Made by a program: the position numbers and the translations under genes
Shown: piece by piece, positions 2,041-61,275 of the stretch
How the letters are laid out: each line of letters opens with the position of its first letter
Position numbering within the stretch: position 1 is the first letter of the stretch
Sequence record: ON286975
DNA from: Escherichia phage I29
Length of the DNA: 64,000 nt
Reading direction: 5' to 3' (one strand)
Notes under the pieces: generated by a model
What the model was told of the DNA's origin: nothing
What the model saw: only the letters and a program-made list of their open reading frames with translations
The model's database searches: none

Positions 2041-5000
2041 TTACTTCAGTTTCTCTTGCAACCCAGTAACAACCTCTGTCAATTTTTTAACCTGCTCCTC
2101 AAGGGCGGTTATTTTATCGTCCTGTTCCCTGCAAACCTGGACAAGCAAGCCTGTTACAGCTGCATAGTCAACGTTATAGAATCTTTCCTCAGTCATCAGA
2201 GGGGTGCCGTCTTGAGTAGGCCCTGGAACCTCTTTCCTTTGCACGAAAGACCCAACCGCTTCTGGTAATGCTTCCATAACTTCTTGAGCAATTACCCCTG
2301 CGTAAGGCATACCATTCTCTTTTAAAGTATAGGTATAGCCTTTCATCTTCCGGATAGCTTCTACAGCGTTAGGTATGACCTCGATATTATCCTTCAGGTC
2401 ACGGTCAGAACTTTGACTAACAGTGGTGCATTCTACTGCACCATTGACAGCAAAATATCTTGATTTGGCCTCATCTGTCTTGGCCCCGCAATGGAATACC
2501 CAGTTGGAGAGTGTTGAGTTATCACTTATCTGGAACTCAAGCACATTCTTCCGGTCTGCACCATTGCCCCAATAATATAACCTACCTGTATTAGCAGGTA
2601 TGTTGGAACTGTTGCCAACAGTAGCTCCGCCGCCAGTGTGGATTATAAACTCTGGGTCAAGATTCGAACCTTGAGTTTTCAAAGTGATCCCTTTGCCACC
2701 AAGCTGCTGCCAAGGTCCCCATGTGAAAACACTACCTATTGTTGTTCCATAACGCAGGAATTTTTCCCCAAGATATGATACATATTCCTGCACACAGCTC
2801 TCAGGCACGTTGGCGTAATTCCTGTACACAATAAGTGTACCTGCCTGAGCACAAGGGTAGTTTCTCTCCGGAGTGGCCTGAGCATTGGCCTCTTGGTGAT
2901 AAAAACCCTCTCTATCCCCTTTGTAGTCGTTAAGGTCATTAGTTCCCAACCCTTGACCACGGTGCTGAATAACTTTGTTCCACGCTCTGTGGTTTCCCTG
3001 CTCTATGGAACGAGTGTACAGCTGGTCTAAACGACCTGCCATCTGGAAAGCGTAGTTTCCAGAAAAACCAACCGACAACCCTGCTACAACCATGGAACCT
3101 TCAGGTCCGTTGACGTTACCAGCCATTATTTTAGAAGGGTTGTTATTTCCGAACTGGTTGTTCCAGTCTGCACCTGTGTGGCATACAAAACCACCAGGAG
3201 CTGAGAAAGTGCCATCTTTGTTGAAGTTGTAGAATTTGTGAGCAGAACCTACAACATCACGAACAATAACTTGACCAGCCTCTGGAGTAGATCTGAACTC
3301 TGCCTGTCCTTTGAGACCAGCACCATTACCGCATTTAGAGGTAAACGTACCGTTAGTCAGATCCTCTGTCCCATCTGATGCACACTGGAAGCCTGCATTA
3401 GAGAATAACGCCTTTCTAGGACTGCCGTAGCACAAATAGTTAAGACCGTCTGCCCATAGCTCGACTTTTGGCATATTCATTTTGCTCATCACAGCATAGC
3501 GTTCAGCAGTGCCTATATAGTGCCACTGTGTGCCGCCACCAGTGTAGAACCCTGAAGTCCCTTTGAAGTCAACAATAGGTCTGGTGTTGGTATTATTATC
3601 TCCAAGAACAGCAAGATTCAAATCTGCTGACTGGAGAGGTGCAACGAACTTAACACCGTCCTGATTGTCTGTTACAGAGCCAACCTGGTAATCTTGCTCC
3701 CTGGTAAACACCTCGACAACATTTCTACTTGCGTATATGCTGACAGGGAAAGCACGCGCCTCTGCATAGAAAGCAACATATTCTTGTTTACCCCTTGTTG
3801 GAGCAACCATCCCAAGAAGTGCTTTTTCATTCTGGTAGAAATTTACTACCCCGTAGAAAGAGTCTCCTCTGTCTGTCCAACCACCAGTTCTATAGTGACA
3901 CTGTAAGGTCGCACAGTTCATAGGGTCATTTCCAGATGAAGACCTGGTGACTATAGTAATATCTGTACCTGTCGAAGGGGCGTAATACGGATCTGTTCTA
4001 ACGATGATTGGGTAGTATTTCCCATCTTCCATCCCTGCGGTTCTTGGCAGTGTTAAGAAGTCTTTTACACCTGCTGCTATAGGAACTTTGAACAGATTCT
4101 GAGCATCTGCTAAAGTTGTAGCCCCAGTGCCACCTGCGGCTTGAGGTAGAGGTTCCCACTTGGCCTTCCGGTTGTTATAAACACCCCATTCAAGCGTTCC
4201 TTCACCTTGCTCGTCCATACCGCCATCCCAGACAACCATCTTGGCGGCTTTCTTGGACCCCCAGAAGCCTCTTTCTGCCCCTGAACTACGGATCCACTCT
4301 CCAAGTCCCCAGTTTGCCAGCTGACCGTTCAGATCACCAACCTGCATATATTTAGGACAATCTAAGACCCCATCCTCACGGAAGCCTAAATAGCTATGAG
4401 TTTCAGATCCTTTTGCGCCTTTGTGCAGGTGGATTGTCAACCAAGCCTTATTGTCGTTTCTTACCTCAGAGTAGATCCTATACCCATGCTCAAGGACACC
4501 GTCAGCGCCGTATTTATCCCCATGGAGAATACCTGATGGAGACTTAACCTCAGAAGTGCTTTGAGATAGGTAAAGGTGCCCGAAGGTAGGGGTATTTCTA
4601 GACCCGAGACCGATGTGCGATCTAAAGGTATCATCGTTACGAGGTCTGACCATCGGCTGCCATGCAGTCCACTGATTTGTGTTGGCCTGATAGGTTCTCA
4701 AATACCAAACATCTACGTTAGAGAATGGATAGTATTCCTGACGACAACCTGTACCGCCGTTAGCATTGTTCTGCCAGACAATCAAGTGACCAGCACCAGA
4801 ACCTGCAGGGTAACCATTTGCCTCAGTTGCATAAGCAGTCATCGGCTGGTAGTATACACCATCCTGATTACCAGTCAAGTTATTGATATTGAAATTTGGC
4901 TCAAGGGCTGCACGTTGCTTATAGAAAGCACCGATATTGATACGGACTCCAGCGGCATCTCTAGCCCCTGTGCCGCCTTGCTCTATAGCAAGAGGTTGCC

Positions 5001-5841
5001 ACGAAGCTGTTTGTTGGTTCCACATACCCCAACGGCCTGTTGCATCAAGCTGCAAGTACCCTGCCGTATTTAAATCATCTCCAGCACGGATAACTGTTCT
5101 TGTTGGGTTGTTTGCCTCTAGGCGTTTAAATTCATCACGAAGTGCTATTCTTTTCGTTGTTGCTACACCGTTGGTTACTGCAATGGTGTACATGGCTCCG
5201 GTGGTAGCGCCACGGAAAATACCATCAACAGTTGTAGTATCACGACGAGATACCACACCGTTCAGAAATTTTTCACCAGCTGCTACAGAAGGGTAGTTGG
5301 TAGTTCTTCCCTCTTCAATAACTGCAGGGCCAACAAAGTTATCAAGGTGAATAACATCGCCTACAGTGTGCACTGTACCAAAATCTACACGCTGTGCAAG
5401 TGCTTTGGCATCGTTAGCTGTCTGAACAGTAACATCCATTACATCCTGGACAGACTGCCCTTCGGCTGTCATGATCATAGATGCGCCAATGGTAGATTCC
5501 AGCTCCTCCCTTAAGGACGGGTCAGTATATACCATCCATGCAGCATCAGTGATCCCACCATCGGAGTACGGTGAAGACAGTGCAGGAACAGTGTGCGGAA
5601 ATTCGCCTTTCCAACGTAGGTAGAGGTCTTCCTCTTCGAAGTAGGCAAAATCCATTGGGCCGTTTAACTTACCACCTTCCTTAAAGGAGATTACATGAGA
5701 AACAGTCCCATCAACATGGACAACATCGCCAATTTTTACACGACGGGTCAGGTCTGGTTGTTGAACAACCAGGTAATCATCCTCTGTCACTGCGGTAGTG
5801 GCAGGAAGAGATTCAATTCTGACAACTTTAATATCAGCCAT
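2041..5841 (-). CDS. long tail fiber / receptor-binding protein with C-terminal intramolecular chaperone domain
   Basis: 1266 aa; AGGAG RBS before ATG at 5841. N-terminal ~100 aa paralogous to the 8477..9145 product. C-terminal ~120 aa contains SDRDLKDNIEVIP...KMKGYTY, matching the conserved Ser-Asp-x-x-Leu-Lys autoproteolytic chaperone motif of tail fibers and tailspikes. Confidence 0.8.
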   Translation of the reverse strand: MADIKVVRIESLPATTAVTEDDYLVVQQPDLTRRVKIGDVVHVDGTVSHVISFKEGGKLNGPMDFAYFEEEDLYLRWKGEFPHTVPALSSPYSDGGITDAAWMVYTDPSLREELESTIGASMIMTAEGQSVQDVMDVTVQTANDAKALAQRVDFGTVHTVGDVIHLDNFVGPAVIEEGRTTNYPSVAAGEKFLNGVVSRRDTTTVDGIFRGATTGAMYTIAVTNGVATTKRIALRDEFKRLEANNPTRTVIRAGDDLNTAGYLQLDATGRWGMWNQQTASWQPLAIEQGGTGARDAAGVRINIGAFYKQRAALEPNFNINNLTGNQDGVYYQPMTAYATEANGYPAGSGAGHLIVWQNNANGGTGCRQEYYPFSNVDVWYLRTYQANTNQWTAWQPMVRPRNDDTFRSHIGLGSRNTPTFGHLYLSQSTSEVKSPSGILHGDKYGADGVLEHGYRIYSEVRNDNKAWLTIHLHKGAKGSETHSYLGFREDGVLDCPKYMQVGDLNGQLANWGLGEWIRSSGAERGFWGSKKAAKMVVWDGGMDEQGEGTLEWGVYNNRKAKWEPLPQAAGGTGATTLADAQNLFKVPIAAGVKDFLTLPRTAGMEDGKYYPIIVRTDPYYAPSTGTDITIVTRSSSGNDPMNCATLQCHYRTGGWTDRGDSFYGVVNFYQNEKALLGMVAPTRGKQEYVAFYAEARAFPVSIYASRNVVEVFTREQDYQVGSVTDNQDGVKFVAPLQSADLNLAVLGDNNTNTRPIVDFKGTSGFYTGGGTQWHYIGTAERYAVMSKMNMPKVELWADGLNYLCYGSPRKALFSNAGFQCASDGTEDLTNGTFTSKCGNGAGLKGQAEFRSTPEAGQVIVRDVVGSAHKFYNFNKDGTFSAPGGFVCHTGADWNNQFGNNNPSKIMAGNVNGPEGSMVVAGLSVGFSGNYAFQMAGRLDQLYTRSIEQGNHRAWNKVIQHRGQGLGTNDLNDYKGDREGFYHQEANAQATPERNYPCAQAGTLIVYRNYANVPESCVQEYVSYLGEKFLRYGTTIGSVFTWGPWQQLGGKGITLKTQGSNLDPEFIIHTGGGATVGNSSNIPANTGRLYYWGNGADRKNVLEFQISDNSTLSNWVFHCGAKTDEAKSRYFAVNGAVECTTVSQSSDRDLKDNIEVIPNAVEAIRKMKGYTYTLKENGMPYAGVIAQEVMEALPEAVGSFVQRKEVPGPTQDGTPLMTEERFYNVDYAAVTGLLVQVCREQDDKITALEEQVKKLTEVVTGLQEKLK

Positions 5842-22746: not shown

Positions 22747-23724
22747 TTATTTGTTAGATTCTGCACGTGCACGAGCAAGTGCTTTTGCAACGTTTTCAGC
22801 AAGAATTTCTTCTGCGGATTTTGCAATATCATCCACAACAGGTTCGCCATCATTACCATGTTCAGTGGTGGCAAACTCTTCTTTGGTTTTATGAACCTCT
22901 GCTTCCAGCTCTTCAATTTTTGCTTGAGCTTTCTCCAGCATAGCTACGATAGGTTCGTTAGCTTTTTCCAGCATGAAGTCAACCAGGGTTGCGTGATCTT
23001 CTTCACCAACAAAGCTTAAAGCTTGAGCCTTAGTCAGCATTTTAGCTTTTTCAACTTCAACCTGGGCCTTGATAATTTCTTCAGCTTTACTCTGGGTTGC
23101 TTTCAGCTCTTCTACTTGCTTCAGCAGATCCAGATACTCTTTAGTTTTGGTTACGTCCACCGGATTCTCCTCGGTATTTGCGGATTTTGCAACATCATCC
23201 ACCTCGGTAGTTTTATCCACCTCAGCAGGTTCCTGTACCGCCTTGATCAGGTTCCCTTCTTTATCGAAGAGATCAGCGGTTACTTGTTCAAAAATCTGTT
23301 GTGTTTTTAACAGACTGTACTGATCTACCACACTAAGCTGCTTGCCTTCTTTTGCAGCTTTATGAATGGTCACGTTATCACAACGCTCTTCCAGCCATGC
23401 AATACAAGACTCTGCGTCAGCTTGCGCCCATTCCCAATCGGGGTGCTCTTTAGCCCAAGCCTCTTCTTCAATCTCAAAACCAAGCATGTGTGCAAGTGCT
23501 TTAGCATCATCATACCACATATCGAAGAAACGACGCAGGTATTCTTCAAAACTAAGCTCCACAGTAACTTGGCGAAGTGCCTTAACAATATCGTCTGTTA
23601 ACTGCTCCGGCTTAAGATCACTCTTCATCAAAAGAGATACAGGTCTGTTGTTAGCGCTATAGCCTTGCGCCTTATGGCACAGGGCGATCCCCTTCTCTTT
23701 AATAGTAATCGTTTTTTCAGACAT
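22747..23724 (-). CDS. scaffolding protein
   Basis: 325 aa, acidic, Ala/Glu/Lys-rich with coiled-coil character; located between portal region and capsid gene. Confidence 0.55.
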   Translation of the reverse strand: MSEKTITIKEKGIALCHKAQGYSANNRPVSLLMKSDLKPEQLTDDIVKALRQVTVELSFEEYLRRFFDMWYDDAKALAHMLGFEIEEEAWAKEHPDWEWAQADAESCIAWLEERCDNVTIHKAAKEGKQLSVVDQYSLLKTQQIFEQVTADLFDKEGNLIKAVQEPAEVDKTTEVDDVAKSANTEENPVDVTKTKEYLDLLKQVEELKATQSKAEEIIKAQVEVEKAKMLTKAQALSFVGEEDHATLVDFMLEKANEPIVAMLEKAQAKIEELEAEVHKTKEEFATTEHGNDGEPVVDDIAKSAEEILAENVAKALARARAESNK

Positions 23725-24155
23725 TATTCATTGCCCTCTTCTACAACACTGATCCCGAAGTTTACGTTGGTAATTTCACCAGTTTCTTCATCAACATTAC
23801 CTGTTGCCTGAATGCTTAGGCCACCGACAATGCCAGCCTTCTTAGCTTCCCATAGTTCAGGATTATTGTATTTAACTTTAGCAACCCAAGAGCCAGCCTT
23901 GATGACCTGCTCAGTGCCAATTACTACAACATCAAACTCTTCTTGAATCCACGTCTTTTCAATAGTGAAAGCATCTGTAGAGGTCAAGTGGAAAAGGTTT
24001 TCAGAAACTAGGCCTGCAGCGTATGCTGCGTCCCAGTTATCTTTAGCCTTTTTGATGGTGTCTTTACTCATCCACTCACCGTGAGCATCTTTAGTGTCAG
24101 GCTCGTAGATGATTTCGTAGGAAATCATTTCTTCCTGTGGCATCTTATTCCCCAT
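23724..24155 (-). CDS. hypothetical head morphogenesis protein (start uncertain)
   Basis: ORF track 23724..24299 overlaps the portal 3' end by 89 nt; internal ATGs at 24155/24143/24128 are more plausible starts. Confidence 0.35.
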   Translation of the reverse strand: MGNKMPQEEMISYEIIYEPDTKDAHGEWMSKDTIKKAKDNWDAAYAAGLVSENLFHLTSTDAFTIEKTWIQEEFDVVVIGTEQVIKAGSWVAKVKYNNPELWEAKKAGIVGGLSIQATGNVDEETGEITNVNFGISVVEEGNE

Positions 24156-24210
24156 GTGGATTATTTTATCACGCCAAAGGAGGTTTTGCAACCCCCTGTG
24201 TTGATAATTT

Positions 24211-25767
24211 TTAATTTTCCATGTTGGATATGGAATTATCTCTGGTTGATGATATCTTAGAAGTGCCGTTGCCAGTGGATCCTGCAGCCATTCCATCACC
24301 AGCTCTACTGATGTCCTGGCCCAAGAGCTTCATCAGCTCTTCCTGATCCATGTCCTCGTCAAATCTTTCATCAAACCCGCCTACTTCAAGAATCTTATTA
24401 ATTACTGCAGGAGTTTTTGGCAAGTAACCTACAGCACCGATCCTCTGGACAAACTTGGAGAAGCTCTCCATATCCACTTCTTCAATCAGACCAGGTTTCA
24501 GTTTAGGCATATCATCATCTTCAAGGATGATACCATTCAATGCCAGAAGCTGTGGAATAAGATCCTTATTGAAGGCTTCAGTGATAATATCTATATCACG
24601 CTGAACAAAATGACCATGGATAGACTGTTTTGACTCAGACAGAGAGAAGGATCCAACGTTATCGTTACCGAGGTTAATAAAGCCAGCACCGAAACGGTCA
24701 AGAATCGCCTTCTTACGGGCATCAATCAAATCTTTAGTGGAATACTGCTTACCCATACCGTCAACCCCCTTCAGGGTCATGGAGTAAAGCTCTTTACCAG
24801 ACTTATCTCTATCAGACGGAAGTATAAAGAAACTTTGCTCACCACTATGGGCGTTTGCTGCGTCAAGCATAAGGTCTGCAACCATTCTCCCTTCCATTGA
24901 ATTCGGGTCAATGCTGGCCTTGTTCAAAATATTGGAAGGAATTTTCAGCTCAAGCACACCACCAAGGTCTTTGGAACAGCCAACAACCTCAAGGTTTTCA
25001 ATCAGAACTTTCTCACGGAAAGATCTGTAGCAACCTATCATAGGTGACACACCTGCAGGGTTAGATTCTGTTCCTGACAGGGTCATGAGCATAAGCTTTT
25101 TAGCAGGGATGAAAATTTCAGGCTCATTAAAGCCTTTTGAAGGCATTGCAGCAAGAGGTCCAGCCCAGCGTGCATTCTGAGTGTTTAGAAATGCATTAGG
25201 TGACTGATAAATACCTGTCAGTGTTCTGCTATTCTTATCAAAAACAAACGGCTCTGATCTGGACAGGCTGGCCTGAGGCCGGAATGCAATTTTATCGATA
25301 AGAAGCATCCCGGCATATTTACCTTCTTTCTCTCTGCGGTATACTTTCTCAAACAGTGAAAAACCATACTCGTTAAAGGTAGCTGCGCTTCTTGCAATAT
25401 CTCGAAGAGTTTGTTGGTTTGCCAAATTACGCAAAGAATACTCTATAAGCTCGGCAGCTTTCTTAGAGTCTTCACTTTTAACATTATAAAGGATCTTAAA
25501 ATCATTGAATGCTTTCGTGATGAAAACATATTTTGTATCTAAGGCAGTAGCAACTGTGGAATCACATTTCATAGTCTCCACTGTGGCAATCAGCTGAGGC
25601 CAACGCAATTCCTCAACCATCATAGATTGCGATTCTGCCATAATTTGGGAAAGTGCGCCAGAACCGATCTCACTCATACGAACATTATGAGTTGGTGCGC
25701 CTGCGTTCCCAGATTTATTCACAGTTTTGGCTGTGGCGTTGTGTTTCCTGCGGTTCTTTTTGGACAC
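24211..25767 (-). CDS. portal protein
   Basis: 518-aa ORF immediately downstream of large terminase; size and acidic C-terminus typical of portals. Confidence 0.7.
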   Translation of the reverse strand: MSKKNRRKHNATAKTVNKSGNAGAPTHNVRMSEIGSGALSQIMAESQSMMVEELRWPQLIATVETMKCDSTVATALDTKYVFITKAFNDFKILYNVKSEDSKKAAELIEYSLRNLANQQTLRDIARSAATFNEYGFSLFEKVYRREKEGKYAGMLLIDKIAFRPQASLSRSEPFVFDKNSRTLTGIYQSPNAFLNTQNARWAGPLAAMPSKGFNEPEIFIPAKKLMLMTLSGTESNPAGVSPMIGCYRSFREKVLIENLEVVGCSKDLGGVLELKIPSNILNKASIDPNSMEGRMVADLMLDAANAHSGEQSFFILPSDRDKSGKELYSMTLKGVDGMGKQYSTKDLIDARKKAILDRFGAGFINLGNDNVGSFSLSESKQSIHGHFVQRDIDIITEAFNKDLIPQLLALNGIILEDDDMPKLKPGLIEEVDMESFSKFVQRIGAVGYLPKTPAVINKILEVGGFDERFDEDMDQEELMKLLGQDISRAGDGMAAGSTGNGTSKISSTRDNSISNMEN

Positions 25768-42838: not shown

Positions 42839-43822
42839 ATGATGACAAAGTTAACTCTTGAGCAAATTTTAACACTAAAGCAACAGGGATACACTAATAG
42901 ACAAATTGCTCGTGAATTTTTAGGCCGTGAGTCACGTGAGAGCTGGATCCGACTACAGCTTAAACGTGCACAAGAGAATATGTCAGAGATTGTAGGAGAA
43001 GCAACGGAGCGCTTCCTTGAAGAGCACAAAGGCGCTAAAGTTTGGGTGTATGATACAGAGACATCCCCAACAAACGGCTGGTTCTTTGGGCACTATAAGA
43101 CCAACATTCAAACCTGTGGTATTGAAGTTATGCCTTATATGCTAACTTTCGCAGGTAAGTGGTTAGACAGCCCTAGTGTGGTTGACTGCGCTCTTCCCGA
43201 TTACAAAATGTGGGATGAGGATATTCACAATGATCTCGAATTGATTCAGGATTTGTGGTATTATCTGGATAAATGCGATGTCGCAGTAGCCCACAATTCA
43301 GGTTTTGACTGCGGGTGGGCCAACCAACGATTTGCATTTCACGGGTTGCCTCCAACAAGCCCCTACAAAGAGGTTGACACCCTTAAAATGATCAAGAAGG
43401 CATTCCGTTTGAATGCAAACACTTTGGAGTATGCATGCAAATACTTCCAACTGGCCAGACAGAAACTGATTGATCACACATTTGAAATGTGGATCAAGTG
43501 TGTCCATGGCGATCTTGAGGCATTTAAACAGATGCGGGAGTATAATGTTGGTGATATCCTGTCTCTGGAAGGACTGTATTTGCTGGCTCGCCCGTTTGCT
43601 AAGCAGCACCCAAACATGTCATTGTACTACCAGGACGAGGAGCCAAAGGTTCGTTGCCCACGCTGTGGTGGAGAACACCTTCACGAGGAAGAAGCTTTGG
43701 CATATACTCAGCTGAGTGCATTTAAAACATACCGCTGCGAAGGTTGTGGATCTGTTGTTCGTGACCGTAACAACATCCGTACCAGAGAAGAAATGAAAAA
43801 CACCCTGATTCAGATAATCTAA
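42839..43822 (+). CDS. DEDDh-type 3'-5' exonuclease (DnaQ-like) with N-terminal HTH-like segment
   Basis: 327 aa; Exo I VWVYDTETS, Exo II AHNSGFDCGW, Exo III YNVGDI; C-terminal CxxC...CxxC. Confidence 0.65.
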   Translation: MMTKLTLEQILTLKQQGYTNRQIAREFLGRESRESWIRLQLKRAQENMSEIVGEATERFLEEHKGAKVWVYDTETSPTNGWFFGHYKTNIQTCGIEVMPYMLTFAGKWLDSPSVVDCALPDYKMWDEDIHNDLELIQDLWYYLDKCDVAVAHNSGFDCGWANQRFAFHGLPPTSPYKEVDTLKMIKKAFRLNANTLEYACKYFQLARQKLIDHTFEMWIKCVHGDLEAFKQMREYNVGDILSLEGLYLLARPFAKQHPNMSLYYQDEEPKVRCPRCGGEHLHEEEALAYTQLSAFKTYRCEGCGSVVRDRNNIRTREEMKNTLIQII

Positions 43823-43837
43823 CAATTATAGGGAGGC

Positions 43838-44686
43838 TTGCGCCTCCCTTTTCCTTTTGGAGGCACTTTGAGCAAGAAAGAGTCCAACGACAAATATTAC
43901 ACAAACCCTGAGTATGCAGAATATCTTGTTGGTAAAGTAAAAGATAAGTATGGAAATTGTGCATACGTTGAGCCTTCTGCTGGAAGAGGTTCTTTTTCAA
44001 AACTATTTTCAGAGATACTGTCGTACGATTTAGTACCAGATCCTGAATTTGAAGGGCCAACACCGTGCATTCAGGCAAACTTCTTGGAGGTGCACCCCAA
44101 GGCAGATGTCTTCATAGGTAACCCACCATTTGGCAAGAATTCATCTTTAGCTTGCAAATTCTTCAACCATTGTGCATCATTGCTAGAGCTTGGAGGGGCC
44201 ATAGCCTTCATCTTGCCACGGACATTTGAAAAAATATTTTTTGCAAACAAATTGGACATGTCGATGCACCTTGTCTACAGCGAAAGGTGCCCTAAGAATT
44301 CGTTTTTACTTAATGGCAAACCTTATGACGTGCCGTGTGTTTTCCAAATTTGGGAGAAAAAGGCGTGTAATAGGGATCCTGTAGAGATTGGAGAGAATAA
44401 GTTATTTTCTTTTAGCACTCCAGATGACTACGACTTCTGTGTAAGACGTGTTGGGTATAATGCTGGAAAAGTATTGGGGGATGATGACCCAAAATCTGAA
44501 GAATCGACATATTTCATAAAATCTTTAGTTGACGGTGTTGACAGAGTGTTTTCTGAATGCTATTCTTCTTTTCAAGAAGAAGCAGGTAAGACTGCCGGAA
44601 TGAAGAGTATAGGCAAGAAAGAACTACAATACATTTTGGAGACCAGGTATGATCAAAAGCATAGACTTGACCAAAGAACTCACTGA
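43838..44686 (+). CDS. DNA amino-methyltransferase (N6-adenine or N4-cytosine), orphan
   Basis: 282 aa; motif I VEPSAGRGSF and motif IV GNPPFG. Confidence 0.7.
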   Translation: MRLPFPFGGTLSKKESNDKYYTNPEYAEYLVGKVKDKYGNCAYVEPSAGRGSFSKLFSEILSYDLVPDPEFEGPTPCIQANFLEVHPKADVFIGNPPFGKNSSLACKFFNHCASLLELGGAIAFILPRTFEKIFFANKLDMSMHLVYSERCPKNSFLLNGKPYDVPCVFQIWEKKACNRDPVEIGENKLFSFSTPDDYDFCVRRVGYNAGKVLGDDDPKSEESTYFIKSLVDGVDRVFSECYSSFQEEAGKTAGMKSIGKKELQYILETRYDQKHRLDQRTH

Positions 44687-45107
44687 TGCGAAAGCTTTTG
44701 GTGAGACAGCGGTACAAAGGGGGCAGGCAATGGGACTGGCACTACCTTTCGTCTTAAAAGAGCACTTTACAGATTTTCAACTTATCAAGGGCGATAAGGG
44801 AATGCTTATCCTGGAGCATAAGTTGAGTAAGAAACGCTATAAAGTTGTTTTTAATTCTAAAGCTCCAACAAAACTGGGATTCAGAACTTACAATCTTAAC
44901 CCATCCTACACTAAGGGTGTTGGAAGGGTAGAACAACAGCATTTCAGTGCCAGAGCTTCTTTAGCCCCTTTGATGCTAAATTTCTCAGGGGTGGCTTTAG
45001 GATACCTTGATAAGAAAAGAGTTCTTCATGTCCGTTTCACAGACTTTGTAACGCTTTTAGCTAACAACGAGGTTGATGAAAAGGGACGTGTAAAAACAAA
45101 CTTCTAA
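44649..45107 (+). CDS. hypothetical protein (start uncertain)
   Basis: 152-aa ORF overlapping methyltransferase end by 38 nt. Confidence 0.35.
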   Translation: MIKSIDLTKELTDAKAFGETAVQRGQAMGLALPFVLKEHFTDFQLIKGDKGMLILEHKLSKKRYKVVFNSKAPTKLGFRTYNLNPSYTKGVGRVEQQHFSARASLAPLMLNFSGVALGYLDKKRVLHVRFTDFVTLLANNEVDEKGRVKTNF

Positions 45108-45122
45108 TAACGCATAATATGA

Positions 45123-45326
45123 TTGGAGACCACAATGACACTAAAGTTAACAATTCCAGACAGCTTTTCAGAAAACTTTATCCCAGAAATGATGAGTAAG
45201 ATGCGATCATTGCTTGATCAGATTGAGGAGGCTGTTTGGGAAGACGATGCTGTAGTGGCTAACGAGCTGGTAGATAAGTGTAAAAGTATTATTGATGCAG
45301 TTGAAGAATACCACGGAGGTTTTTGA
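45123..45326 (+). CDS. hypothetical protein
   Basis: 67-aa acidic ORF. Confidence 0.35.
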   Translation: METTMTLKLTIPDSFSENFIPEMMSKMRSLLDQIEEAVWEDDAVVANELVDKCKSIIDAVEEYHGGF

Positions 45327-45940
45327 TGGATATTATTGTTCTTAACGCCCCACCCAGCAGTGGTAAGGATCACATTGCAGATCTCTTGTTGGAAGCTATT
45401 CCTAACTCACACCACCGTGAGGTTAAGGAGATGCTCTTCAGTGTGGCAATTAAGGCAGCTGGTGTAACTCCTCAACTCTGGAATGCCCTTTATGACCGCC
45501 ACTACAAAGAAGAGCCTTGCCCTTTCTTAATGATAGACGGCAAGCATGTTTCTCCGCGAGAATGGATGATCCATTGTAGTGAAAATCTGATTAAACCTAT
45601 CTTTGGTGAAGATGCTTTCGGTAAAGCCGCAGTCACATCTTTGAAGAAAGATTTCCCTGAAGGTAAAGGGGTTATTGTTTACTCCGATGGGGGATTCAAA
45701 GAGGAGCTGGCATGCCTTAGTGAGTACGCATACAGTACAGGTGGAGATCTGTTGTTGTTCCGTATTCACCGTGTAGGATATGACTGGGGAAATGATTCCA
45801 GAACCTACCTAAGTCTGGAAAAGAACGGAATAAAAGGGGTTGAGTTTGATGTTGTAAACCCTGAAGGTGCACCTTGGGAGTGTGCATCGGAGATTGTGTG
45901 CAAGTATATTGATGCTAAAGAGGCCCAAGAAGAATGTTAA
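45323..45940 (+). CDS. deoxynucleoside monophosphate kinase-like P-loop protein
   Basis: 205 aa; N-terminal IIVLNAPPSSGKDH resembles the phage dNMP kinase P-loop. Confidence 0.45.
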   Translation: MMDIIVLNAPPSSGKDHIADLLLEAIPNSHHREVKEMLFSVAIKAAGVTPQLWNALYDRHYKEEPCPFLMIDGKHVSPREWMIHCSENLIKPIFGEDAFGKAAVTSLKKDFPEGKGVIVYSDGGFKEELACLSEYAYSTGGDLLLFRIHRVGYDWGNDSRTYLSLEKNGIKGVEFDVVNPEGAPWECASEIVCKYIDAKEAQEEC

Positions 45941-46527
45941 TCGGAATTGATGTAGATCTGACACTGGTAGATTCAGGAACAGCATGGTGGGAGTGGTTGG
46001 AGCGTTTGTATGGTCCAGCCAGTAAGACAGTCGCTAAACCTTCTAATGGGTTAATGTATTACGATCTGTCAAAGTATTGGCCTGATCGCCCCAAAGAAAA
46101 CATCATAGGGCCTTTTGATTTCTGGAGTGACCCGTTCCTTTACGACTTTCTTAAGCCTGAAGAGGGGGCTATTGAGGTTATGAAAGATTTGGTGGCTCGT
46201 GGTCACAAGCTTGCGTTTATCTCGGTATGCAAGAAAGGTCACCTTGCATCTAAATCAAGGTTCTTAAAGCGTTGGACCAGTGATTTTATGGATCTGGACG
46301 ATCACACCCAGGGCCACGGATTCTACGCCACACATTTCAAAGGGAATGTGGCTGTAGATGTTATAATTGACGACAGGCATGAATACCTGAACCAATTCGC
46401 TTCACGACCTGAAGTTATTAAAATCCTAAAAGATACGCCTTATGAGCAATTCGAGGAGTTAAAGGTCAGTATTGACTATACCGCCAATAGCTGGTATAAA
46501 ATAGGAAAGTTTTTAGAAGGTATTTGA
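45934..46527 (+). CDS. HAD-superfamily phosphatase, 5'(3')-deoxyribonucleotidase-like
   Basis: 197 aa; motif I GIDVDLTLVDS (DxDxT) and later VIIDDR. Confidence 0.55.
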   Translation: MLIGIDVDLTLVDSGTAWWEWLERLYGPASKTVAKPSNGLMYYDLSKYWPDRPKENIIGPFDFWSDPFLYDFLKPEEGAIEVMKDLVARGHKLAFISVCKKGHLASKSRFLKRWTSDFMDLDDHTQGHGFYATHFKGNVAVDVIIDDRHEYLNQFASRPEVIKILKDTPYEQFEELKVSIDYTANSWYKIGKFLEGI

Positions 46528-57884: not shown

Positions 57885-58934
57885 ATGAATTTAACACCTC
57901 GCAGCACCATGGTACACGGCATGAAAGAAAAACAGAACGGTTTCGAACCTATGAGTAATAAAATGTTTGGTATGCCGGGCGGTATCATGGAAACATACAG
58001 CTACCCAACACCTGTTGTTGACCACGTTCTTTATATCGACGATTTGGAGGACCTGCAGGATCATATGTCTCGTCTGCAGACGATCCGTATGGCTCAGCCG
58101 GAAGAAAGCATTCGTGTGATCATCAATAGCCCTGGTGGTTGCGTGCACATTGCAATGGCTTATCTGCAGGCATTCCGCGAGTCTCAGGCAAGCGTTGTTG
58201 CACATGCTGAAGGGATGTGCTGCTCTGCTGGAACAATCTTATGGCTTGGTTGCAAAGAACGTACTGTGGCTCCGGACACAGAATTTATGTTCCACTACTA
58301 TCAAGGTGGCACTTATGGTAACGGTGTTAACATGAATACTCAGGTCAGCTACTGGAAAAAACGTTTTGAACACCTGATCGAAAAATACTACGGTGGGGTG
58401 CTGACAGAAGATGAGATCGCATCCATCACAGCTGGTGGCGAAGTGTGGTTGGACGGAGAAGAGTTGGCAGCACGCACTGGAGCTATTATTCTGGATGAAG
58501 GCAACATACAACGCATCCAGAACGGACAAAAACCGAAAAAGCTTCTGGCAAAAGGTGATGAAGAAGGCGTGTTAGGTGAAGCAGGTCTTCCGGAGATTCA
58601 TCAGTGCACATCTTTAGATGAGTTAGTTCATGCTGTTGAATCTGCAAAAGCGGGTGGTTCGAAAGGTGATGTTCACACTGTGTTCCTGAATCTGCAGATG
58701 GAAAGTGGCGAGACCGTCCGAATTGCCCTGGGTGAGATTACTTCAGAAGATCTGCAGAGATTCTCTGTCGTTGAACTTCAGGATATTCTGTCTCAATTGA
58801 AGACTACTCTGAACGGCGGTGAAGAGGTTAAGGTGAAAGATAAGACTCGCAAGCGTCTTGTGGACAATATTATTAAAACAGCAAAAGAGCTCAATGAAAA
58901 AATCCTGGGTGCAGGAATTGTCGAAGAAGCTTAA
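57885..58934 (+). CDS. ClpP-family (S14-like) serine protease homolog
   Basis: 349 aa; ClpP-like blocks VIINSPGG, AEGMCCSAGTIL (Ser) and FMFHYYQGG (His); long C-terminal extension; true start may be a downstream Met. Confidence 0.7.
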   Translation: MNLTPRSTMVHGMKEKQNGFEPMSNKMFGMPGGIMETYSYPTPVVDHVLYIDDLEDLQDHMSRLQTIRMAQPEESIRVIINSPGGCVHIAMAYLQAFRESQASVVAHAEGMCCSAGTILWLGCKERTVAPDTEFMFHYYQGGTYGNGVNMNTQVSYWKKRFEHLIEKYYGGVLTEDEIASITAGGEVWLDGEELAARTGAIILDEGNIQRIQNGQKPKKLLAKGDEEGVLGEAGLPEIHQCTSLDELVHAVESAKAGGSKGDVHTVFLNLQMESGETVRIALGEITSEDLQRFSVVELQDILSQLKTTLNGGEEVKVKDKTRKRLVDNIIKTAKELNEKILGAGIVEEA

Positions 58935-58947
58935 ACATTAATTCTAA

Positions 58948-58968
58948 AGCCCTCTTCGGAGGGCTTTT
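58948..58968 (+). terminator. intrinsic terminator after ClpP-like gene
   Basis: AGCCCTC-TTCG-GAGGGCT followed by TTTT. Confidence 0.6.
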
Positions 58969-58985
58969 ATGATCTGGAGATTTGC

Positions 58986-59519
58986 ATGACTTGTGCTAGA
59001 AAACCTGATGAACAACGTAACGCCTACGATGAGTATGTGACACCGGAGTGGTGTGCAGAAGGGCTGTATGACCTTATTCCGTTCCCAGAAGACTGGACCT
59101 ACTTAGAGCCTTGCAGGAATAGTGCCTCAGGTGTGTTCTACTCCCGTATGCCGTTAGGATCTGCATGGGGAGAAATCCAAGAAGGTGTTGACTATCTGAA
59201 TACAGAATACAACCATGTTGACTGTATTATCACCAACCCGCCGTACAGCCTGGCTCGTGAGTTTGTGGACAAGGCGTTGAAAGATGCCGACGTAGTTATT
59301 ATGCTTTTGCGTCTTAATTTTCTGGAAAGCAAGGCCAGATTTGAATGGTGGCTTGATAATGCACCTACCACTGTGATCACAATATCTAAGCGTCCGTCAT
59401 TCCAATCTAATGGTAGAACGGATGGGCAGGCATATGCATATTTTGTGTGGGATAAGAAAAACCGTTTAGACTTGCCGCCATTTATGTGGTTGGCACCCCC
59501 AGAGGTAGACCTGAAATGA
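58986..59519 (+). CDS. small DNA amino-methyltransferase (NPPY type)
   Basis: 177 aa; LEPCRNSASG (motif I-like) and ITNPPYS (motif IV). Confidence 0.55.
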   Translation: MTCARKPDEQRNAYDEYVTPEWCAEGLYDLIPFPEDWTYLEPCRNSASGVFYSRMPLGSAWGEIQEGVDYLNTEYNHVDCIITNPPYSLAREFVDKALKDADVVIMLLRLNFLESKARFEWWLDNAPTTVITISKRPSFQSNGRTDGQAYAYFVWDKKNRLDLPPFMWLAPPEVDLK

Positions 59520-59800
59520 AAATGAGTGCTAAGGACAAATTACACCAGTTAGCGCTAAAACGTCCTGTAACGCTCCCTGACGAGCTTAACTCCATTTATG
59601 ATGCGATTGTAGGGGAGATACAAAATAAAGCGTTAGCAGGCTTTCTGGGATGCGGATTTTCGATAAATCTACCGTCGCATCTCTCAGATTACTTCCCGCA
59701 CATTGTTGGAGATTTAAGGGCAGGAGGTTTGCAGGTAGATGTTGTCGGCATCTCTCCAGAGAAAAATAACACGGTTGCCTACTTGACAGTAACCTGGTAG
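59516..59800 (+). CDS. hypothetical protein
   Basis: ORF track 59486..59800; ATG at 59516 overlaps the methyltransferase stop (ATGA). Confidence 0.35.
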   Translation: MKMSAKDKLHQLALKRPVTLPDELNSIYDAIVGEIQNKALAGFLGCGFSINLPSHLSDYFPHIVGDLRAGGLQVDVVGISPEKNNTVAYLTVTW

Positions 59801-59807
59801 TTGTGTA

Positions 59808-60074
59808 TTGTTGTTCTCAACAAGGGGGTCATTTATGTACAAGTCATTCTCAATTTACTCAAGACAGGCGAAACACTACACAGAGATCCTGATTACTCAG
59901 AAAAAATCTGTAGAAGGTGAGTGGGAATATCACCATAAAATGTTGCGTCCAGATTGGGTTTTTGATAGACTTATTGCCATGATCCCTCTTGGGGAAGTAT
60001 ACCCTCTGACAGCCCATCGCGATGCTTGGGATTTAATTGATTACATAGATTCATTTAAGGAGCCTAGATTATGA
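59808..60074 (+). CDS. hypothetical protein
   Basis: 88-aa ORF. Confidence 0.35.
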   Translation: MLFSTRGSFMYKSFSIYSRQAKHYTEILITQKKSVEGEWEYHHKMLRPDWVFDRLIAMIPLGEVYPLTAHRDAWDLIDYIDSFKEPRL

Positions 60075-60472
60075 AGATTGAGATTACTAAAGAAGGTAAG
60101 AAAGTGTCCGGCAACTATGCAACAGTAATTCGGGATTTAATGTTTGAAGCCACCAAGATAGGTACATCTAAAGTTGGTCAAACTGTTAGTGTGAAAAGTA
60201 ATATCGCCACAGGAGAGAAGGTATTCATTGTGGTCAAAGGGCAGGATCCTGTGGAAGGAACAGTGGGCCGAGGAGGTTACCTGTGCATTTCTGAAGAGCC
60301 TCGTATGCTAGTGGCTGACTCCGCTACTATAGGTGGGAAACGTGTGTGCGAGGCGGATGAGGTAATGATTATCCAGCCTGTTGACCCAGATGATCCAGCA
60401 ACTTGGGTGGTAGGAAATGAAATCTTCTCTTTAGAAGAGTTATCCTTCCCAGCCCCGCGCTCTGTTCAGTAA
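60071..60472 (+). CDS. hypothetical protein
   Basis: 133-aa ORF, ATGA overlap with upstream ORF. Confidence 0.4.
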   Translation: MKIEITKEGKKVSGNYATVIRDLMFEATKIGTSKVGQTVSVKSNIATGEKVFIVVKGQDPVEGTVGRGGYLCISEEPRMLVADSATIGGKRVCEADEVMIIQPVDPDDPATWVVGNEIFSLEELSFPAPRSVQ

Positions 60473-60511
60473 TAATTTATCTTACCAGGGACGGTAGAAG
60501 CAGGAGGTAGC

Positions 60512-60745
60512 ATGAAAGTTAAATTTCTTACAGATTTAGGGTACCCTTCCTTGGTTGACTGTGTTGGTAAAATTGTGGAAGCAAAACGGCTATCTGCAAA
60601 CGAGAATGTTGTCCTGGTTAAAGGGAAGGATTTACTAGCTGCAGGTGCAGAGTCTGGCAGGATCTCTCCTGATTATATGTATTACCTATCTTTAAGTAAT
60701 CTGCCAGAGCGAGGCGGTAAAGGCCTTGAAGTTGTGGAGGAGTGA
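60512..60745 (+). CDS. hypothetical protein
   Basis: 77-aa ORF. Confidence 0.35.
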   Translation: MKVKFLTDLGYPSLVDCVGKIVEAKRLSANENVVLVKGKDLLAAGAESGRISPDYMYYLSLSNLPERGGKGLEVVEE

Positions 60746-61275
60746 CAGGTATGCTTCTGATTAACTGGGAAGACCTCTATGGGGACAAAGACCCTGTTGC
60801 GTTTGTTGATCGTAGGTGGAGATACACTGAAGAACAACTGGCGGCAAAAAATTTAACTGCAAAACGCAGAAAGATCATCCAGTGCAAGTACAAATACGCA
60901 CAGTTTGCTGCAAAAGTGTCTCCACAAATCGAGAGCTTTGTGCTTAAATTGTATGACGAGTACCTCAAATTCAAATTGGATTTTGTACAGGTGTACCGTG
61001 CACAGGTACGACCAGATACCAACATATGTAGATGGAAGGTTGTTTGTGACGGTAAAGATTTGCCGCTCAGCTTGACAATTGAGTGGCGTTATGGGTATCA
61101 TGAGTGTGGTCTGTATGATATTTGGGATGTCATTGTAGATCCTGCTAAGCATCTGAACACAGAGGAGCTGGAATATATCAATAAGGTTATTCTCGATATG
61201 TTTTTCAGCTACACCCATGAAAACTCTGAGAAAGAACGGGATAATTTTCTTGACACCCTCAGCTGCCATTTGTAG
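60742..61275 (+). CDS. hypothetical protein
   Basis: 177-aa ORF. Confidence 0.4.
   Translation: MTGMLLINWEDLYGDKDPVAFVDRRWRYTEEQLAAKNLTAKRRKIIQCKYKYAQFAAKVSPQIESFVLKLYDEYLKFKLDFVQVYRAQVRPDTNICRWKVVCDGKDLPLSLTIEWRYGYHECGLYDIWDVIVDPAKHLNTEELEYINKVILDMFFSYTHENSEKERDNFLDTLSCHL

Follow-up and report, generated by a model that had tools for sequence, protein, structure and literature searches.

Here we report on two methyltransferase genes in a 64,000-nucleotide stretch of DNA from Escherichia phage I29 (record ON286975), which as a whole is called the window below; one gene codes for a 272-aa protein (protein A) and the other for a 177-aa protein (protein B). Our analysis makes it probable that both are orphan N6-adenine DNA methyltransferases of the γ lineage that mark the phage genome. 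We propose that A and B, which would depend on S-adenosylmethionine (AdoMet), methylate the replicating Vequintavirus genome before packaging. B would modify the GATC adenine on both strands, completing what host Dam cannot finish during infection, and A, with a catalytic domain and a small M.TaqI-like recognition domain, and apparently descended from a cellular type II methylase whose restriction gene the phage lacks, would make a second, B-independent mark, GTm6AC. The virion DNA would arrive pre-protected from GATC-specific (MboI/DpnII-type) and GTAC-specific (RsaI, Csp6I, PabI/HpyAXII-type) restriction, and the price of methylation would be sensitivity to methylation-sensing defences such as retrons.

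Both gene regions share 98–99% DNA identity with rV5 (NC_011041), the O157 typing phages and the BASEL Vequintaviruses (about 120 phage records), so we take the window to be part of an rV5-like Vequintavirus, that is, of an E. coli myovirus of 135–140 kb. The two genes and their class were already known, being annotated as putative N6-adenine or DNA methyltransferases in more than 100 related genomes since that of rV5 (gp096 and gp118 in rV5; bas57_0196 and bas57_0174). Because of these annotations, and because one of the two has been characterised by experiment, the novelty of their identification is low.

Protein B and the GATC mark

An ortholog of B, bas51_0176, is present in phage Bas51 (WalterGehring, MZ501111), which carries two 'N6 adenine methyltransferase' genes in the stretch that matches the window. 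B and bas51_0176 have the same length, are identical at 176 of 177 residues (99.4%) and are both preceded by a ClpP-like protease; the single difference, near the C-terminus, is a V in the window and an A in Bas51, where the activity was measured, and no functional difference is expected from it. In a 2025 PLoS Biology paper, every Bas51 escaper of the retrons Asa1 and Squ1 was mutated in an 'N6 adenine methyltransferase', and the substitutions D69G, D79G and T83P, rebuilt in a clean background, abolished retron triggering (PMC12548924). Since residues 69, 79 and 83 are D, D and T in bas51_0176, as in B, but Q, A and I in bas51_0200, the ortholog of A, the enzyme of that study is, as judged from these residues, the ortholog of B. 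Nanopore sequencing called N6-methyladenine (m6A, also written 6mA) at 1405 GATC adenines in wild-type Bas51 and at 35 in the T83P mutant (Fig 4f source table, PMC12548924), and by our count the Bas51 genome holds 703 GATC sites, that is, 1406 adenines. Because all adenines but one are marked in the wild type and the mark is lost in T83P, B, as shown for an ortholog differing by one residue, leaves practically no GATC unmethylated on either strand, and host Dam adds almost nothing during infection. The methylation of the phage genome that the original prediction had put forward is thus borne out at this motif. A low contribution of host Dam agrees with the finding that only about half of the Dam sites of λ DNA are methylated before packaging (PMC3299994).

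The core of B presents the γ-class motif order, with an NPPY tetrapeptide and motif I; a recognition domain is absent, and the closest structures are γ-class. The families of A and B are homologous in the catalytic domain (hhalign 97.4%, E 1e-11, residues 1–168 of A against 8–161 of B), and B is, by this alignment, in effect the catalytic core of A minus the C-terminal 100–140 residues. The B family, with members of 160–230 aa, is represented in 543 phage records, among them phages of Escherichia, Vibrio, Microbacterium, Streptococcus and Listeria; the lack of a recognition domain, unusual among methylases generally, is normal for this family. B belongs to phrog_799 of the PHROGs database ('DNA methyltransferase', 8e-67). 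It stays below threshold with EcoRI_methylase (20.1 bits), PF05869 'Dam' (19.2 against a cutoff of 28.1) and TIGR01712 phage_N6A_met (16.1 against 97). Ten of 36 family members match PF05869 at E up to 0.01, none above the cutoff (best 25.1 bits), and among the MTase_II models of PADLOC B gives a faint match (E ~1e-3) to a model other than PDLC03255.

Among known systems, the phage 'mini-Dam' proteins of PF05869/TIGR01712 (~165–170 aa) are similar to B in size and show weak similarity at motif IV and beyond (PF05869, E 0.001, B residues 69–143; TIGR01712, E 0.006), whereas B (PHROG 799) is nearer to γ-class enzymes. E. coli Dam and T4 Dam share with B the product Gm6ATC, and T4 Dam is likewise a phage-encoded orphan, but they are unrelated α-class enzymes of ~260–280 aa with an inserted recognition domain, and B gave no match to the Dam/D12 (MethyltransfD12) family in Pfam at E up to 1. 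The GATC specificity common to B and α-class Dam is convergent, as has been noted for other phage GATC methylases (PMC7556043). The non-specific methylases Hia5 and Hin1523 were considered as analogues of B and rejected: they are 281 aa long and align with Dam/DpnII-type enzymes.

The original prediction regarded a 177-aa methylase as unusually small and perhaps in need of a partner. Its size is ordinary within the family, and we consider it very unlikely that recognition of GATC by B depends on a partner or specificity subunit encoded by the phage. Such a partner is suggested by the reduction of B to a catalytic core and by the small open reading frame (ORF) that overlaps its stop codon; in addition, the fall of 'other' m6A calls from 576 to 349 in T83P hints at some relaxed activity of B. 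However, when expressed alone from a plasmid, with no phage present, the ortholog proved toxic to E. coli and sufficed to trigger retron Squ1 in Serratia, the native host of the retron (PMC12548924). The downstream ORF has no recognisable domain, and the family is spread over very different phages with no conserved neighbour noted. Recognition by a homodimer or by loops of the core would suffice instead of a partner; if true, B reads GATC without a recognition domain, in a mode that has no structural description.

Protein A and its cellular relatives

Protein A is predicted, from its motifs and from the structures it aligns with, to be a two-domain, M.TaqI-like, γ-class N6-adenine DNA methyltransferase and not an RNA methylase. 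The motifs DKYYTNP, EPSAGRGSF and NPPF, followed by the C-terminal domain, stand in a linear order kept in 39 homologs (Table 1), and this order, the (D/N)PP(Y/F) tetrapeptide and the glycine-rich AdoMet motif I place A in the γ class. In alignments of 39 homologs of A and 36 of B (30–86% identity), motif X (D-x-[FY]-Y-T-P), motif I (E-P-x-x-G-x-G) and motif IV (N-P-P-[FY]) show little or no variation, and on this conservation the motifs of A and B are not due to chance. AlphaFold models built from the same alignments are confident, with a mean predicted local distance difference test (pLDDT) score of 93.2 for A and 88.0 for B. Across both of its domains, A aligns only with structures of γ-class DNA adenine methylases that possess a recognition domain; of its 272 residues, 253 align with MmeI, 239 with CamA, 236 with M.BseCI and 226 with M.TaqI. 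Identity of A and B to M.TaqI, M.BseCI, CamA and the MmeI module is 15–20%, these enzymes having 382–750 aa against the 272 of A, and B differing from them further by its missing recognition domain.

Profile searches agree with this assignment. The PADLOC model 'MTase_II' PDLC03255 (Type II methyltransferase), which derives from REBASE, matches A at 2.4e-34, with residues 8–253 on profile positions 2–249 of 269. Neither A nor B reaches any Pfam or NCBIfam threshold, A scoring 15.5 bits with PF07669 Eco57I (gathering threshold 25.3) and 13.7 with PF05175 MTS (threshold 23). Searches of both proteins against the PDB with phmmer gave nothing meaningful, profile searches alone being informative, and in PHROGs A falls in phrog_5172 ('unknown function', 4e-129). 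Precomputed matches to PF26055 Mtase_EDM2, labelled 'weak' where a strength is given, are recorded for many homologs of A (for example L017, 5001–5804); the PF26055 model describes the methyltransferase-like domain of EDM2, a chromatin regulator of plants. Our Pfam scan of A and two PF26055-labelled homologs gave no PF26055 match, and the model may be absent from the Pfam copy used. There are hints here that the plant EDM2 domain is related to the prokaryotic and phage type II methylase family of A.

A scan of one genome per bacterial or archaeal species, followed by clustering of the neighbouring genes, yielded 80 loci with relatives of A. A conserved protein of ~215 aa is encoded downstream in 19 of them, at a median distance of 2 nt; loci with the pair include Poseidonibacter and metagenome-assembled genomes labelled Sphingomonadales, Rhodobacteraceae/Paracoccaceae, Verrucomicrobiae and Gammaproteobacteria. 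These neighbours match the PADLOC model 'Type II restriction enzyme' (REase_II) in 16 of 17 cases (best 5e-15) and show the motifs NQxHGKxFE, PTSIKS and DSKxQRRLQCS (for example in L021, L026, L042, L044 and L045, at ~4780–5450). They have 616 homologs, all annotated 'hypothetical', and apart from the generic REase_II model no relative was matched in Pfam, NCBIfam or a PDB profile search. We regard the partner as a putative type II restriction enzyme. Since the ~215-aa neighbours match a type II restriction-enzyme model, the A family is, on the evidence of gene order and profile matches, the methylase half of a cellular type II restriction–modification (R-M) pair. Other homologs of A are orphans within T4-like replication modules.

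In the phage this partner is missing. The neighbours of A and B (endonuclease VII, a DnaQ-like exonuclease, a deoxynucleoside monophosphate kinase, a ClpP-like protease and small unknowns) match no restriction-enzyme model, and the enzyme family that partners the cellular relatives of A gave no match in the phage by hmmsearch. For these two reasons both genes are orphans, as the original prediction had stated on seeing no restriction endonuclease nearby, and neither is part of a complete type II R-M system. Because its cellular relatives adjoin a type II restriction enzyme that the phage lacks, A most likely acts on DNA, and the phage copy is a true orphan. A partner gene common to phage and cellular loci was sought and rejected: the 152-aa ORF downstream of A in the phage is dissimilar to the cellular downstream genes (BLAST, hmmsearch).

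The catalytic core of A finds its closest likeness in METTL5-type methylases of ribosomal RNA (rRNA), and a classification as RNA or protein methyltransferase, which had been named beforehand as fatal to the original prediction, was for this protein a real risk; it fails for A and for B. That A is an m6A methyltransferase of rRNA or transfer RNA, of the METTL5/COG2263 kind, is in our view scarcely credible. The RNA-methylase matches span only the ~150-residue Rossmann core, whereas the C-terminal 100–140 residues align with DNA-methylase recognition domains alone and the PADLOC type II match runs the full length of the protein. METTL5, Ta1320 and PH1948 (COG2263, rRNA m6A) are single-domain proteins of ~200 aa without a DNA recognition domain; A has an extra C-terminal domain of the DNA-methylase type, and its relatives are paired with a directly adjoining type II restriction enzyme in several phyla. 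Moreover, a GTAC mark made by the phage on its DNA requires an enzyme. Of the two chemistries originally offered, N6-adenine or N4-cytosine, the adenine type holds, and N4-cytosine is not indicated for either protein.

The GTAC mark and the value of methylation

The same source table lists m6A in GTAC at 509 adenines of wild-type Bas51 and at 511 in T83P (Fig 4f, PMC12548924). By our count the genome has 258 GTAC sites (516 adenines), and GTAC is ~99% methylated on both strands in Bas51, independently of B. To our knowledge E. coli K-12 is without a GTAC methylase, and since the mark also persists in T83P, a phage enzyme other than B makes it. We found in PMC12548924 no statement giving the mark to an enzyme, and nothing further in the literature on RsaI digests of rV5 DNA or on Vequintavirus methylomes; a search of a viral structure library returned no named GTAC enzyme.

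We favour A as the enzyme that makes GTm6AC on Vequintavirus DNA, an assignment by analogy that we hold to be rather likely, because its architecture is like that of M.HpyAXII, its origin is in a type II family, and the rival methylase is type III Mod-like. M.HpyAXII of Helicobacter pylori, by its description a small γ-class enzyme with an M.TaqI-like N-terminal fold and a catalytic N87 (N85 in A), makes GTm6AC and is frequently kept without an active restriction partner (PMC2588503). It differs from A in its length (331 against 272 aa) and in its partner, a PabI-type 'half-pipe' glycosylase in place of the ~215-aa enzyme beside the cellular relatives of A. Short palindromes are the sites that type II pairs read.

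Besides A and B, Bas51 has just one further adenine-methylase candidate, bas51_0070, a β-class enzyme (PF01555, 4e-42) whose nearest relatives of known structure are Mod subunits of type III systems (6k0w, H. pylori Mod, 1e-28; EcoP15I Mod, 2e-24). It is a bona fide DNA methylase of the sole phage with methylome data, and we have to ask whether a Mod-like enzyme of this type makes the GTAC mark, A having another specificity among the 'other' m6A calls or being weak or inactive on phage DNA. The 349–576 'other' calls could indeed contain a further motif (table of PMC12548924). Nevertheless, the 349 'other' sites that remain in T83P come close to the number for one 5-bp asymmetric site (2 × 140,659 / 1024 = 275), so that GTAC is left over for A. 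Enzymes of the type III Mod kind typically act on a single strand of asymmetric 5–6 bp sites, whereas GTAC is a 4-bp palindrome marked almost completely on both strands, and A shares its architecture with a known GTm6AC enzyme and would derive from a type II R-M family. On these grounds we judge the Mod-like enzyme an unlikely source of the mark. For a second, fully occupied motif in a published methylome, A is now put forward as the candidate gene and bas51_0070 as its named rival.

If A makes GTm6AC, its cellular relatives and the ~215-aa partner would constitute an uncharacterised GTAC-specific (RsaI-isoschizomer) type II R-M family, the specificity of the partner being predicted as GTAC. 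If the partner does cut GTAC, it represents a new family of restriction enzymes, in a widespread cellular pair exposed by the present analysis. The ratio of observed to expected GTAC sites (O/E) is 0.75 where the R-M pair is present (19 loci) and 0.83 where the methylase stands alone (61 loci; Mann-Whitney p = 0.14), and both GTAC and CTAG are generically depleted. To the combined statement that A is the maker of GTm6AC, that its relatives and their partner are a GTAC-specific R-M family and that B is among the smallest fully sequence-specific DNA methyltransferases, we give an even chance.

Several points weigh against the proposal that A and B mark and protect the phage genome. The assignment of GTAC to A is indirect, bas51_0070 is also present in Bas51, and some β-class enzymes recognise palindromes. 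GTAC is depleted in the phage, with O/E values of 0.53 (window) and 0.59 (Bas51), only CTAG being depleted further among the 4-bp palindromes, yet this is not specific evidence, as the unrelated bacterial loci are depleted too. The anti-restriction benefit is itself inferred, and when challenged with R-M systems of types I, II and III in the BASEL study, Vequintavirinae proved 'exceptionally susceptible', so that they seem to be without effective protection (PMC8594841). Since none of the tested systems targets GATC or GTAC, this sensitivity limits the claim of protection without refuting it, and an anti-restriction role of A and B is plausible, though narrow at most (GATC- and GTAC-specific enzymes).

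The main value of methylation could lie instead in DNA metabolism, through escape from MutH at hemimethylated GATC or as a mark for replication, recombination or packaging, as Dam for P1; this would be compatible with both proteins marking the genome, and we regard it as possible, if doubtful. GATC is not avoided in the phage (O/E 0.99–1.00) and the E. coli that it infects is Dam+, so selection by GATC-cutting restriction seems slight within the host range. In the same direction point the lack of broad protection of rV5-like phages from R-M (PMC8594841) and the position of both genes within a module of replication and nucleotide metabolism. The methylase mutants plated somewhat below wild type even without a retron (P <= 0.0011; PMC12548924), and what Dam enzymes do for phages has been called poorly understood even now (PMC7556043). 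On the other hand, the mutants, T83P included, remain viable and reach titres within ~2–3 fold of wild type (PMC12548924), and the descent of A from an R-M pair is in keeping with the classic capture of a methylase for protection. The cost to the phage is documented, the methylase being the trigger of retrons Asa1 and Squ1 (PMC12548924). Phage methylases are thus double-edged: the mark expected to protect against GATC-specific restriction is also sensed by retrons, which is relevant to the choice and engineering of rV5-like phages for therapy.

Gene layout and neighbouring genes

The original prediction placed the two ORFs and their motifs correctly, as an ORF and motif check confirmed (Table 1), with one amendment. 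Gene A was first read as 43838..44686 on the + strand, with a TTG start and 282 aa, in whose numbering EPSAGRG is residues 45–51 (nt 43970–43990) and NPPF residues 95–98 (nt 44120–44131); the ORF and the motifs stand, whereas the start codon probably does not. TTG 43838 lies inside a hairpin with an 8-bp stem, 6 G-C pairs and a T-rich tail (terminator scan and direct reading), and just 1 nt separates AGGGAGG from it. A second TTG, at 43868, has a GGAGG Shine-Dalgarno sequence upstream at 4-nt spacing, gives a 272-aa product and is the start used in all curated relatives (rV5, BASEL phages); judged from these signals, it is probably the true start.

Table 1. Positions of genes A and B, their motifs and adjoining features in the window
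Feature	Position (nt)	Strand	Remarks
Terminator-like hairpin	43830..43849	+	AGGGAGGC-TTGC-GCCTCCCT, then TTTCCTTTTG; between DnaQ-like exonuclease gene and A
Extra codons of the 282-aa reading	43838..43867	+	10 codons, probably untranslated
Methyltransferase A	43868..44686	+	272 aa, likely true coding sequence; predicted γ-class, M.TaqI-like orphan; orthologs rV5 gp096, bas51_0200
A catalytic domain		+	residues ~1–130
A motif X	43889..43909	+	DKYYTNP, residues 8–14; D8 and T12 invariant in 39 homologs
A motif I, AdoMet binding	43970..43996	+	EPSAGRGSF, residues 35–43; E35, P36, G39, G41, F43 invariant
A motif IV, catalytic	44120..44131	+	NPPF, residues 85–88; G84-N-P-P-F-G89 invariant
A C-terminal target-recognition domain	~44255–44683	+	residues ~130–272
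152-aa ORF	44649..45107	+	overlaps 3' end of A by 38 nt; phrog_9938, unknown function; conserved in Vequintaviruses
Methyltransferase B	58986..59519	+	177 aa, ATG start; γ-like catalytic core without target-recognition domain; orthologs rV5 gp118, bas51_0176
B motif X	59028..59045	+	DEYVTP, residues 15–20
B motif I region	59103..59132	+	LEPCRNSASG, residues 40–49
B D69	59190–59192	+	
B D79	59220–59222	+	
B T83	59232–59234	+	
B NPPY	59235–59246	+	residues 84–87
94-aa ORF	59516..59800	+	ATG overlaps stop codon of B; phrog_12158, unknown function

The tight overlap of A with the 152-aa ORF suggests translational coupling. This ORF does not code for a restriction enzyme, matching no such model, and is unrelated to the cellular ~215-aa partner; the 94-aa ORF that follows B matches no restriction-enzyme or defence model. 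A stem-loop, AAAGCCCTC-TTCG-GAGGGCTTT, lies at 58946..58969 on the + strand between the ClpP-like gene and B. Lacking a T-run, it was not accepted by the terminator scan; processing or attenuation upstream of B is a possible role for it. The fifth gene after B, at 60742..61275 (+), is the ortholog of the Bas51 'putative glycosidase' bas51_0171, in which the premature stop R87* abolishes defence by retron Asa1 and not by Squ1 (PMC12548924); its product has no Pfam or NCBIfam match and a faint one to PADLOC REase_II (E 0.008, 13.6 bits).

Two is the right number of methyltransferases for the window. A third label, on the ortholog of rV5 gp063 (23724..24299, − strand), was rejected: the product is an XkdF-type prohead serine protease (PF14550, 1e-17). 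The gene lies between the portal and scaffold genes and is mislabelled 'DNA methyltransferase' in RefSeq NC_011041 and in PHROG 1530, its label being correct in BASEL; the gp063 name is an annotation error that is spreading through databases. Two further methyltransferases are found in Bas51 outside the span of the window, a Mod-like enzyme (L008, 14456..15781) and a Dcm-like one (L008, 17042..17806). The Dcm-like protein, without a Pfam match, is a C5-cytosine enzyme and irrelevant to m6A. The Mod-like gene is present in 88 phage records at at least 90% identity, against ~120 records for A, and by these counts appears to be variably present. Finally, between ~20 and 50 GenBank records of the MG0656xx series, named 'Campylobacter phage' (host C. 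jejuni, unannotated), are 97–99% identical to E. coli rV5-like phages (matches to window positions 43000–46000 and 58000–60500), and they are probably not true Campylobacter phages but records with a wrong label or contaminant assemblies.

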